NCBI RefSeq assembly: GCF_044324875.1
Contig: NZ_CP172185.1
DNA length: 64,000 bases
Reading direction: 5' to 3' (one strand)
From: Escherichia coli
GTDB taxonomy: Bacteria > Pseudomonadota > Gammaproteobacteria > Enterobacterales > Enterobacteriaceae
In this document: in pieces, positions 41,278 to 47,356 of the stretch
How positions within the stretch are numbered: position 1 is the first letter of the stretch
How the letters are laid out: the number at the start of each line of letters is the position of its first letter
Position numbers and translations under genes: made by a program
Notes under the pieces: model-generated
The model's input: only the letters and a program-made list of their open reading frames with translations
Told to the model about the DNA's origin: nothing
Database searches by the model: none

Positions 41278-42051
41278 TCATAATTGCCATTTTAAATGCA
41301 GGCCTAATTGCAGCCCATTGAAATTATGGTTCGGTGTTTTATACCAAACTTTACCTGCCGTCAGCCCGAGATTAAGTTGCTCAGTCAGCGGTTGAATACG
41401 TTGTAAACTGACGCTCTTCATGCTGCCGTATCGTGTTTCTGGCGTCCAGTCATAGGTGTAAGCACCTGTTCCGCGGCTTAGCCATAGTTGTGTATAACCA
41501 GCACCGCGCGGGTCCTTCAGACGCACGGAAATCATATTGCTGTAACTACCAGCTGCATCGCTGGAGTCATAATGGGTATAGCGGTAGCTGGTGATCACCG
41601 GGCCAGTATAGAGAGATACGCCGCCTTGCCAGGCATCGACTTCGACATCATCGTAATATTTAGTGTAGCGATAACCGGTCGTGAAAAGCGTTTTTGGCAA
41701 CAGGGCCAGGTTAATATCCTGACGAAAATCCTGACGGGCAAAGACCGGCGTATTATCCGCAAAGGCAATACCCGTTCGGGTTGTCAGCCAGTTATTCCAT
41801 TTGTACCAGACTGCACCCTGGCCGCGAGTGGCATTGAAATGTTCAGTTTCATAATCACGACGCCCCTGGGAAAGATTAAAAAGCAGCGTTGCGTTTTCAA
41901 CTTTTGCCACCAGTTCAGCATAAGCTAAATTACGGTTGCCATGGTCGCCAGAATAATCGGTAAAATCGTAGCCCGTGGTAATGGAAGTTAACCCGGCATA
42001 AGCGGGCAATGCACTAAAAAAAAACGGCATTAATAACGTATGCTTTATCAT
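41278..42051 (-). CDS. yaiO: YaiO-family outer-membrane beta-barrel protein
   Basis: 257-aa ORF with signal peptide and C-terminal aromatic residue pattern; matches recalled K-12 YaiO. Confidence 0.85.
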   Translation of the reverse strand: MIKHTLLMPFFFSALPAYAGLTSITTGYDFTDYSGDHGNRNLAYAELVAKVENATLLFNLSQGRRDYETEHFNATRGQGAVWYKWNNWLTTRTGIAFADNTPVFARQDFRQDINLALLPKTLFTTGYRYTKYYDDVEVDAWQGGVSLYTGPVITSYRYTHYDSSDAAGSYSNMISVRLKDPRGAGYTQLWLSRGTGAYTYDWTPETRYGSMKSVSLQRIQPLTEQLNLGLTAGKVWYKTPNHNFNGLQLGLHLKWQL

Positions 42052-42052
42052 T

Positions 42053-42763
42053 TTAATCTCCTGTACGGATAAGTTCTTGTCGGAGTGAGTAAGTTCCGGT
42101 AGGTAAATTACGTTCTACAATCACGCGCGGGCCAAGTTGCGTGTTCGGGGAAATAATTCGCCCGGGCAAAATAATAACCTGTACGCCAAGGCGTGAACGC
42201 TGCCCGATATAACAACCTAATTTATCGCATCCGGTAGCGATAATTCCATCTGGCGTTCGAACAGACACGGGCTGTTCATCCAGACGATGATTACTGGTAC
42301 GTACTTGTGCGCCCAGATATGCCTGGTTTGCAACTACCGAGTCGGCAACAAAGCATTGCGGACCAATCGTTGCTTCCGTTTCAATAACCGCATTTTTAAT
42401 TTCGGTGGCAAAACCAATTTTTACGCCATTGCTGATTATTGTGCCAGGACGAATAAACGCATAATTACCTATCAGGCAGTTTGCGCCAATCACTACCGGC
42501 CCCTGAATAACGGCACCGTGGCAAATACGGGTATTCGCGCCGATAACAACTTCACCTGCACTTTCATCAATAATTACCTGGTCTGCAATCTGAGTATTTT
42601 TCTCTTTAACATTAAGCTCCAGATAGTTTTTCAGTTTCTGTGACAGAAGGTTGGGAATAAGCGGTTGACGTTTCCACCAGTGCGGAATAGCGGGTGGGTT
42701 TGTCGCGCTGAGGTTCGCGTCCAGTAAAAAAGGCAATAAGTCCATAAATAATCCAGATGGCAT
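42053..42763 (-). CDS. yaiX: hexapeptide-repeat acetyltransferase (YaiX-like), uninterrupted; start uncertain
   Basis: 236-aa ORF with left-handed beta-helix repeats; ORF-track start overlaps yaiP by ~150 bp. Confidence 0.7.
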   Translation of the reverse strand: MPSGLFMDLLPFLLDANLSATNPPAIPHWWKRQPLIPNLLSQKLKNYLELNVKEKNTQIADQVIIDESAGEVVIGANTRICHGAVIQGPVVIGANCLIGNYAFIRPGTIISNGVKIGFATEIKNAVIETEATIGPQCFVADSVVANQAYLGAQVRTSNHRLDEQPVSVRTPDGIIATGCDKLGCYIGQRSRLGVQVIILPGRIISPNTQLGPRVIVERNLPTGTYSLRQELIRTGD

Positions 42764-45407: not shown

Positions 45408-45917
45408 TTGGATGCAAAGCGTGAGTATACGAATTGCGCTTTTCCCCGCGTCATTGCCGCGTTTTCTGTCGCCGTCATGCTTGCTCTGGTTGTATGCGTA
45501 GTCTGGCAAGTATTTAGCCGCTACGTACTTAACCAGCCAAGTACATTAACCGATGAGCTGGCACGCTTTTTGATGATCTGGGTAGGATTATTAGGTGCTG
45601 CATATACCGTCGGCGCGCAGAGACATCTCTCTATCGATTTATTTGCTCTCGCCCTGAATAAGCGCAAGCAATTACTTCTTAGTATAGTCATTAACATTCT
45701 CATTTTAGGTTTTGCCGGTTCGGTCATTGTGACTGGTGGCCTGAAATTAATTGATAAAACACTGACAACATCACAGGTATCTGCCGCGATGCAAATACCG
45801 ATGGGATACGTATATATCATTCTGCCATTAAGTGGATTGGTGATGATGTTTTATGCCTTGTGTTTTATTAATCAAAGCATTCAACAACTGAAACAACCTG
45901 CGCAGGAGGCCAGTTAA
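45408..45917 (+). CDS. TRAP transporter small permease (DctQ/YiaM-like)
   Basis: 169-aa four-helix membrane ORF immediately upstream of, and overlapping, the large permease. Confidence 0.8.
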   Translation: MDAKREYTNCAFPRVIAAFSVAVMLALVVCVVWQVFSRYVLNQPSTLTDELARFLMIWVGLLGAAYTVGAQRHLSIDLFALALNKRKQLLLSIVINILILGFAGSVIVTGGLKLIDKTLTTSQVSAAMQIPMGYVYIILPLSGLVMMFYALCFINQSIQQLKQPAQEAS

Positions 45918-47218
45918 TGGATAGTTATATCGCGCTTACACTGTTTGGCTGTTTTTTTGTGCTGGTCTTTATTGGTGTGCCCATTTCGTTCTCAATCGGT
46001 ATTGCCACTGTAGCTTCAATGCTGTTGATGTTTCCCTGGGATATCGCGGCAATCACTGTTTCGCAGCGACTGGCTAATGGACTGGATAACTTTGCCCTGT
46101 TGGCAATCCCCTTTTTCATCTTTGCCGGAACGCTGATGAACAGCGGCGGTATTGCGATACGTTTGATTAACCTCGCCCAGGTAATGGTTGGCCGCGTTCC
46201 TGGTTCGCTTGGTCATGTGAACGTCCTGGCGAATATGATGTTTGGTTCCATTTCTGGTTCAGCCGTTGCGGCAGCTGCTGCCGTTGGTGGCACACTGAAT
46301 CCCATTCAGACCAAAGAAGGTTATGATCCGGCATTTTCTACCGCTGTAAACGTCTCATCCTGTATTACTGGATTACTGATACCGCCCTCAAACGTGTTAA
46401 TTGTATTTTCCCTGACAGCTGGCGGCGTTTCTGTAGCATCGCTATTTATGGCGGGATATTTGCCAGGGATCTTAATGGGTCTCGCGGTAATGATAGTCTG
46501 CGGCATTATTGCTAAACGCCGTGGCTACCCACTTTCAGAAAAAGCAACCTTTGCTCAGGCATGTAAAGCGTTTCTGGATGCCTTACCAAGTTTGCTTCTG
46601 GTGTTCATTGTAATGGGCGGCATTCTGGGCGGCATTTTTACCGCAGCTGAAGCGTCAGCAATTGCCGTGGTCTACACATTTATTCTCTCGGTGCTGATTT
46701 ACCGGGAAGTAAAATGGCGCGATTTACCCAAACTGATTCTGGAATCGGTTGTTACCACTTCGATTGTATTACTGTTGATCGGTTTTTCCGTGGGCATGTC
46801 CTGGGCAATGACCAATGCTGATATTCCTTATATGATCAGCGACGCGTTGATGGGGATTTCTGATAACCCACTGGTCATATTGCTGCTGATTAATATCGTC
46901 TTATTAATTGTCGGCATCTTTATGGACATGACACCGGCTGTACTAATCTTCACACCAATCTTCTTGCCGATTGCACAAGAGCTGGGAATGGATCCGGTAC
47001 ATTTCGGTATTATGATGGTGGCCAACCTTTGTATTGGGCTGTTAACACCGCCGGTGGGTAGTGCGCTATTTGTTGGTTGTTCTATTTCAGGTGTGAAGAT
47101 TCAACATTTGCTTAGACCATTGCTACCCTTTTATACAGCATTGCTAGTCGCATTGATGATGATCACTTACATTCCACAAATCTCTTTATTTATCCCACAA
47201 TTTCTAGGGCTGATGTAA
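45917..47218 (+). CDS. TRAP transporter large permease (DctM/YiaN-like)
   Basis: 433-aa polytopic membrane ORF with DctM-type motifs. Confidence 0.85.
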   Translation: MDSYIALTLFGCFFVLVFIGVPISFSIGIATVASMLLMFPWDIAAITVSQRLANGLDNFALLAIPFFIFAGTLMNSGGIAIRLINLAQVMVGRVPGSLGHVNVLANMMFGSISGSAVAAAAAVGGTLNPIQTKEGYDPAFSTAVNVSSCITGLLIPPSNVLIVFSLTAGGVSVASLFMAGYLPGILMGLAVMIVCGIIAKRRGYPLSEKATFAQACKAFLDALPSLLLVFIVMGGILGGIFTAAEASAIAVVYTFILSVLIYREVKWRDLPKLILESVVTTSIVLLLIGFSVGMSWAMTNADIPYMISDALMGISDNPLVILLLINIVLLIVGIFMDMTPAVLIFTPIFLPIAQELGMDPVHFGIMMVANLCIGLLTPPVGSALFVGCSISGVKIQHLLRPLLPFYTALLVALMMITYIPQISLFIPQFLGLM

Positions 47219-47356
47219 ATAATTAATAGCCGGACAATTTTTATTGTCCGGTAAAATTCATCGTAAGCGCTCCTTCTGTGCCGTCTTGTGGTGGTTGTCC
47301 TGTCTGGCAACAATCGCGTCCATCTATTGATGGACACGAACGATGTGGATTTGCCC

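Follow-up and report, generated by a model that had tools for sequence, protein, structure and literature searches.

A yaiOXPS-type block, an orphan TRAP permease pair and an IS2 without target duplication in an Escherichia coli genomic island

We analyzed part of a 64,000-nucleotide stretch of Escherichia coli DNA (contig NZ_CP172185.1 of NCBI RefSeq assembly GCF_044324875.1; hereafter the window), in which a yaiO-yaiX-yaiP-yaiS block is followed by dctQ and dctM, the two permease genes of a tripartite ATP-independent periplasmic (TRAP) transporter, and by a copy of the insertion sequence (IS) IS2. The original prediction for this locus was that a deletion or recombination mediated by IS2 had removed the gene for the TRAP binding protein. 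Part of this holds, as the IS2 does link segments that do not naturally adjoin. The loss of the binding-protein gene, however, maps to another place, an IS-free join upstream.

Two sets were searched, 5,426 complete E. coli genomes (the source genome lies outside this set) and 72,556 plasmids, and the closeness of relatives was measured over a 9-kb test region, window 40000-49000. The closest matches to this region were the chicken isolate ECCNB12-2 (99.8%) and TUM9803. Structural variants among the approximately 15 genomes that carry this part of the island were of the window/ECCNB12-2, TUM9803, Ch1 and strain-144 types.

Results

Features between the yai block and sodC

The features that carry the analysis are the following (positions are those of the window).

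44891-45424, plus strand: fhuD-like pseudogene remnant, equivalent to FhuD residues 91-296 (blastn, 80.5% identity to K-12 fhuD over 44890-45384)
45421-45457, plus strand: first 12 codons of a fhuB-like gene, VSIRIALFPASL, with 10/12 residues equal to the FhuB start
45446-45457: fhuB'::'dctQ join with about 12 bp of shared sequence (CCGCGTCATTGCCG region), placed by a three-way alignment of the window, K-12 fhuDB and the intact dctPQM loci
45408-45917, plus strand: 5'-truncated dctQ, native from 45446, with the frame open back to a TTG at 45408 (PF04290 complete at residues 27-157)
45917-47218, plus strand: dctM, large TRAP permease, an intact open reading frame (ORF) of 433 aa (PF06808, E=2.6e-120, 402 bits; TIGR00786, 471 against a cut-off of 268)
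47230-47251: hairpin terminator 3' of dctM, inside the stretch common with the core TRAP locus
47263-47345, plus strand: 83-bp left end of an IS66-family element, with the terminal repeat GTAAGCGCTCC..., a leader and the tnpA ATG (92% identity to the element of locus L020)
47346-48676, minus strand: complete IS2 of 1331 bp, with orfA at 48220-48630 and orfB at 47357-48262; its right inverted repeat (IRR) ends at 47346 and its left inverted repeat (IRL) at 48676
48677-49830, plus strand: sodC module, left edge, truncated at CTCCC by IS2 (IRL end; 116 genomes contain this stretch)

The TRAP binding-protein gene and the join in dctQ

Both permease ORFs were found as predicted, the small one with a DctQ-type domain (PF04290, 106 bits), and a tblastn search with two DctP proteins, both encoded in intact copies of the operon, detected no DctP-type gene in the 64-kb window. 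The pair therefore lacks the cognate DctP/TAXI binding-protein gene of a TRAP operon. The permeases had also been described as YiaMN-like. They do belong to the same DctQ and DctM superfamilies as YiaMNO of K-12 (2,3-diketo-L-gulonate), but they are not orthologous to YiaMN, as their scores fall far under the equivalog cut-offs for YiaM (NF007374, 37.9 versus 260) and YiaN (NF011634, 296 versus 800).

Matches to the permease genes, at about 97.5%, are present in approximately 1,600 E. coli genomes, and the one that was examined (E41-1) has a full dctP-dctQ-dctM operon between hemW and yggM. An island copy of the operon, with dctP directly upstream of dctQ, is present in LH50-c. These intact loci have the same terminator as the window, and their dctQ (from codon 12) and dctM are 97.5% (core) and 98.8-99.5% (LH50-c) identical to those of the window. 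Homology to both starts only at 45446, 32 bp inside dctQ, and homology to the core locus (L003) runs to 47255. The window lacks the dctP and promoter of these loci and, in dctQ, the native ATG and the first 11 codons; foreign sequence, fhuD' and fhuB', stands in their place. As dctP lies upstream of dctQ, it was not removed by an IS2 located 3' of dctM.

The gap at 44.5-45.4 kb had been named as the place where a binding-protein gene might have been overlooked. One was found there only in a trivial sense, since the dead FhuD fragment is of the wrong class (ATP-binding cassette, ABC) for a TRAP transporter. It has lost 270 bp at its 5' end, is broken by in-frame stops and frameshifts and lacks 27 internal codons in the tblastn alignment, does not form a full-length FhuD ORF, and is annotated as a FhuD/TroA pseudogene in relatives by the Prokaryotic Genome Annotation Pipeline (PGAP). 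The region of the fhuD end and fhuB start (45389-45457) is 87% identical to K-12 at the DNA level. Because the frame of the truncated dctQ is open back to the TTG at 45408, PGAP calls it an intact small permease of 169 aa.

At the join itself, the fhuB 5' end and dctQ codon 12 are alike over about 12 bp by chance, and no IS end is present at 45446-45457. This join is common to 14-15 genomes. In 11 of them (strain-144 type), dctQ is cut further, at 45780, and no IS2 adjoins; the join is therefore older than the IS2 event and independent of it. The alignments thus fix the position of the join in the 5' end of dctQ, and dctP would have been lost there by an IS-free recombination over microhomology.

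An IS2 between two truncated modules

The IS2 contains HTH_Tnp_1 and rve domains and aligns over its full length with five other complete 1331-bp copies at 95.6-99.1% identity; it is a sequence variant, at about 95-97% to the full-length copies with which it was compared. It has the same length, terminal repeats and orfA/orfB as IS2A of K-12. It differs from a simple IS2 insertion in that there is no 5-bp target duplication and a truncated module lies at each end. The flanks CGATG and CTCCC had been reported as unmatched, and this was confirmed. A duplication at slightly shifted boundaries was not borne out either: in SMS-3-5 (TGTTG), AR13438 (CCGCT), GPEC1035 (CTGCC) and B771 (AATGT), IS2 copies with these ends are flanked by 5-bp duplications, so the boundaries are right and the absence of a duplication is real.

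On the left side, the natural continuation of the flank is AATTCTCAGAC... in LH50-c and L020, and in the window it is cut exactly at the IS2 end. A scan of 100,044 species genomes for an exact match to the uninterrupted sequence across this site gave one match, on a 2.9-kb contig (L020, JAEWEI010000021.1) with a complete IS66-family element whose inverted repeats read GTAAGCGC(T/C)CC and whose tnpA starts at the matching ATG. This match identified 47263-47345 as an IS66 left end; indeed, the GTAAGCG... terminal repeat followed by tnpA is that of the IS66 family, and only the 83-bp left end is present in the window. The CGATG flank contains the tnpA ATG, with IS2 placed directly after that start codon. 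In LH50-c, the same IS66 end (L004 9835-9911) has received an IS2 of another sequence type 11 bp further in, independently and again without a duplication. The L020 contig is binned in a metagenome-assembled genome labelled "Actinomycetes bacterium", but the element is of an enterobacterial type and sits in an ISEc23-like tnpA, and this is probably a binning error.

On the right side, the sodC module extends elsewhere leftwards as ...GCTCATGCAA directly before CTCCC, and in the four loci examined it is preceded by ...CCGCTCATGCAA. The module is uninterrupted in more than 100 genomes and plasmids, and its left edge is also found on large ColV-type virulence plasmids. Judged by these comparisons, the IS2 of the window bridges two truncated modules.

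Both junctions are identical in the independent complete genome of ECCNB12-2, and the left one is also present in TUM9803. The IS2 copies of the window and ECCNB12-2 differ by 12 single-nucleotide polymorphisms (SNPs) in two patches (IS2 positions 387-435 and 1040-1139). Such differences at identical junctions indicate that the assemblies are independent and that IS2 copies exchange sequence in these genomes.

The approximately 400 bp around window 48677 form a hot region, in which three independent IS2 insertions with normal 5-bp duplications, those of AR13438, GPEC1035 and B771, were seen in both orientations besides the window copy (loci L017, L018 and L008).

Arrangement of the modules in related islands

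Strain 144 has the order yai-'dctQ-mgtC...LysR-66 bp-CTCCC-sodC and is colinear with the window apart from the mgtC...LysR block of 16.9 kb. In ECCNB12-2 this block is kept, about 20 kb downstream, after the sodC module, an S6 autotransporter gene, an IS3-family fragment and ISEc23. The window matches the ECCNB12-2 arrangement to its last base, except that it has no second IS1414, which is flanked by an 8-bp duplication in ECCNB12-2. TUM9803 was considered as a possible ancestral state because it has the IS2 left junction in common, and was rejected, as it is the ECCNB12-2 arrangement minus 19,951 bp (5193526-5213476 of the ECCNB12-2 record). This deletion starts at IS2 position 426 and extends into the ISEc23 tnpA, with 11 bp of shared sequence, and takes away the sodC module and the S6 autotransporter gene. 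The layouts of ECCNB12-2, TUM9803 and strain 144 show that the island variants differ in module order as well as by deletions.

A further arrangement was seen in Ch1 (L016 10635-11965), where IS2 lies without a duplication in 'dctQ...GGTAT-IS2-TTTCC-mgtC. Strain 144 (L002, around 16634) and ten other genomes read ...GGTATTTCC... at this place, that is, the Ch1 sequence minus IS2 and one T beside the IRL end. IS2 plus one T is the composition of an IS2 minicircle with a 1-bp spacer (PMC3299598), and these genomes may thus carry the footprint of a natural excision; alternatively, the homopolymer may differ in length.

The yaiOXPS-type block

The block upstream consists of four genes on the minus strand.

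41278-42051, minus strand: yaiO-like outer-membrane beta-barrel (PF19413, E=2.6e-26; TIGR04390, E=3.9e-52; 95.4% identity to K-12 yaiO)
42053-42763, minus strand: yaiX-like hexapeptide (left-handed beta-helix, LbH) acetyltransferase, uninterrupted (Hexapep PF00132, E=2.7e-18)
42612-43808, minus strand: yaiP-like GT2 glycosyltransferase (PF00535, E=2.6e-29)
43822-44475, minus strand: yaiS-like PIG-L deacetylase (PF02585, E=3.5e-22; about 85% identity to K-12)

The first gene scores well above the YaiO family cut-offs (TIGR04390, 177.5 bits versus 32; PF19413, 93.1 versus 23.9), and the GT2 enzyme has weak similarity to PgaC/IcaA (106 bits versus a cut-off of 422). The original prediction of an uninterrupted yaiOXPS-type block with an intact yaiX was thus confirmed, as was its remark that yaiX of K-12 is disrupted by IS2: the K-12 gene is split by IS2A, at a site that maps to window 42463-42468. 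PGAP starts the yaiX-like gene at 42646 in relatives. An intact acetyltransferase is annotated in ECCNB12-2 and TUM9803 and, among the matches listed, at the yaiX position generally; the intact gene is the usual state in E. coli, and K-12 is the exception. By family, the block resembles a small synthase-type glycan cluster (GT2, deacetylase, acetyltransferase and outer-membrane barrel), and with four intact ORFs it is apparently functional.

The block has the same four families, order and orientation as yaiOXPS of K-12 (b0358-b0364) and had been taken for this backbone locus. This is not the case. Identity to K-12 is 95.4% over yaiO and the 3' half of yaiX and 85.4% over the rest of the block (yaiX 5' half to yaiS), and about 4,700 core copies are 90-92% identical to the block. 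It is bordered by IS1414 with a helix-turn-helix (HTH) gene at one end and by the fhuD remnant and dctQM at the other, rather than by frmR and tauA, so that neither the flanking frmRAB/tauABCD nor the allelic identity of the backbone locus is found. Most of the block is contained in 4,785 E. coli genomes, with the best place 90-95% identical in 4,684 records, while at least 99% identity to the window block was seen in only 15 records. TUM9803 has two places for it, an island and a backbone copy, and the backbone copy is also present in relatives. Sequence comparison thus marks the block of the window as an island-borne second copy (a paralogue), separate from the backbone locus, with yaiX intact as in most non-K-12 strains. 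The tau genes are indeed not its neighbours, as had been remarked, but their absence is no sign of a rearrangement, since it follows from the location in an island.

A third yaiO/X/P/S copy, much more divergent (74.7% identical), was found at 37070-40185 of NZ_OZ474910.1, a 115.6-kb E. coli plasmid from a sheep isolate.

The genomic island and its other genes

The window is part of an E. coli genomic island of the extraintestinal pathogenic (ExPEC)/avian-pathogenic (APEC) type. In ECCNB12-2 and TUM9803 the island lies at tRNA-Sec, beside setC. Several human isolates match window 1-15000, the kps capsule cluster, at 99.9% identity, and the nearest relative departs from the window within these first 15 kb; with kps as the neighbour in the window and tRNA-Sec in the relatives, the same island modules occur at different chromosomal sites. 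Islands of the AGI-3/tkt1 type, associated with selC or pheV, have been described in ExPEC/APEC (PMC3349570 and papers cited therein). The relatives of the window have neighbourhood genes in common with them: a phosphotransferase system (PTS), a transketolase, a YadA-like adhesin, sodC, an S6 autotransporter, an integrase and tRNA-Sec. In contrast to the selC islands, the island of the window adjoins the kps cluster and not selC. No description of the exact yai/fhuD'/dctQM/IS2 segment was found in the literature searched, and an Rfam scan of 39-51 kb gave zero matches.

Upstream of the yai block, window 37495-39096 encodes a YadA-like trimeric autotransporter adhesin with a 28-residue internal repeat that is present twice; the protein has 533 aa in the window, 555 in ECCNB12-2, 515 in TUM9803, 397 in Ch1 and 388 in strain 144. 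The stretch at about 32400-35000 has no match to ECCNB12-2, and 32894-34734 is 65-73% identical to the IS66-family element of L020, probably a different IS66-family member that inserted here. An IS1414 (IS256-like) copy at 39903-41178 adjoins yaiO; strain 144 has no IS1414 at this site. Inside its transposase gene, out of frame, lies an intact astA (EAST1 enterotoxin) ORF of 38 codons (40275-40391, minus strand; MPSTQYIRRPASSYASCIWCATACASCHGRTTKPSLAT). Downstream of IS2, the periplasmic Cu,Zn superoxide dismutase gene sodC is at 49836-50360, and colinearity with ECCNB12-2 places a gene for a 1274-aa S6-family autotransporter peptidase at approximately 59909-63733.

Discussion

We consider it likely that the region is a patchwork of decaying island modules joined by three independent events, one microhomology join and two insertion-sequence events. 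First, a degraded hydroxamate-siderophore ABC transporter (the fhuD remnant and 12 fhuB codons) would have been joined to a TRAP operon beside the yai block, by illegitimate recombination over the approximately 12 bp of similarity between the fhuB 5' end and dctQ codon 12. With it, dctP and the operon promoter would have been lost, and dctQ would have lost its ribosome site, its start codon and its first 11 codons. Separately, an IS66-family element would have inserted just past the dctM terminator, and an IS2 would then have landed at the start codon of its tnpA. A second IS2 copy would have inserted at CTCCC, upstream of a hypothetical gene and sodC, which is made plausible by the three insertions with normal duplications in the hot region (AR13438, GPEC1035 and B771). 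Homologous recombination between the two copies would finally have left one hybrid IS2 with one flank from each parent. The exchange of sequence between IS2 copies seen in these genomes speaks for such a recombination. It would have shuffled island modules, and would not have deleted dctP. The positions of the junctions are observed, and for the mechanism by which IS2 came to bridge them, recombination between two IS2 copies is most likely. If the exchange was reciprocal, it predicts junctions of the form ...GCTCATGCAACTCCC-IS2 and IS2-CGATGAATTCTCAGAC....

Several points weigh against this reading. The module order is Y-IS2-S-...-M in ECCNB12-2 versus Y'-M-S' in strain 144 (Y, S and M being the yai, sodC and mgtC modules). 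A synthetic junction query of the E. coli genomes and plasmids did not detect an IS2 at CTCCC with a duplication, though it did return the three neighbouring insertions, and the IS2 copies are too mosaic for a clean two-parent chimera. It should also be noted that dctQ and dctM are both annotated as intact by PGAP, and that the dctP of the core hemW-yggM operon could in principle serve dctQM in trans.

The main alternative for the junction is that an IS2 resident beside dctM transposed intramolecularly and so deleted about 17 kb, from mgtC to LysR, as far as CTCCC, as the colinearity of strain 144 with the window apart from the 16.9-kb block would suggest. We rejected such a deletion as the source of this junction, because ECCNB12-2 has the same two junctions and still retains mgtC...LysR about 20 kb further on, and the window tracks ECCNB12-2 to its end. 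In addition, IS2 transposes via a minicircle, and in step I of this pathway its IRL end does not function as a donor (PMC3299598); as it is the IRL end that lies beside CTCCC, a one-ended attack from it is unlikely. We consider this alternative unlikely.

A second alternative concerns the fate of the permeases, which might still be used, with translation from the TTG at 45408 and a DctP encoded elsewhere and acting in trans. The two ORFs are open with complete Pfam domains, they have only three lineage-specific amino-acid changes from the intact copies, and a core dctPQM of 97.5% identity is present in many E. coli genomes. The synonymous and non-synonymous differences in dctQM are too few for a judgement on selection. 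Against continued use, the pair has lost its promoter and dctQ its native start codon and ribosome site, a promoter scan of 44.3-47.4 kb found sites no commoner than in shuffled sequence, and in 11 of the approximately 15 carriers dctM and the 3' end of dctQ are wholly lost, which argues against selection for the pair. TRAP transporters depend on their binding protein, and for this reason, and given the loss in most carriers, we regard dctQM as a remnant: the ORFs are intact at the domain level, have no obvious translation start and are most likely silent. Continued use is accordingly improbable in our view, and we give just as little credence to its specific form, a DctQ that starts at the TTG at 45408 with a foreign N-terminus of 13 residues and works with a DctP in trans, for example from the hemW-yggM operon. 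If this were true, the island would provide an existing TRAP system with a spare membrane module.

The chance that the IS2 at 47346-48676 itself mediated the deletion of the binding-protein gene is very small. The missing duplication and the unrelated flanks would fit such an event, but dctP lies 5' of dctQ in both intact operons examined while IS2 lies 3' of dctM, and the IS-free 5' breakpoint recurs in the 11 genomes with a truncated dctQ and no adjoining IS2. Least probable of all is an assembly artefact, in which a collapsed repeat of IS2, multicopy in these genomes (a query containing IS elements had a median of 6 places per genome), had misjoined two contigs, because both junctions recur in the independently assembled ECCNB12-2 and the left one in a third genome, with IS2 copies 12 SNPs apart.

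All components of the region are of known kinds and annotated in RefSeq relatives, what is seen is ordinary island decay, and the significance of the locus beyond annotation is small. For annotation, it illustrates that a PGAP "intact" call, here a TRAP small permease of 169 aa, can mask a 5'-truncated gene fused to foreign sequence, and that a K-12-like gene block is not necessarily the backbone locus. For work on these islands, the breakpoints at 45446-45457, 47263, 47345/47346 and 48676/48677 should be useful, as should the structural variants listed for relatives. Where an IS has no target duplication, it reliably marks a module boundary in ExPEC/APEC islands.

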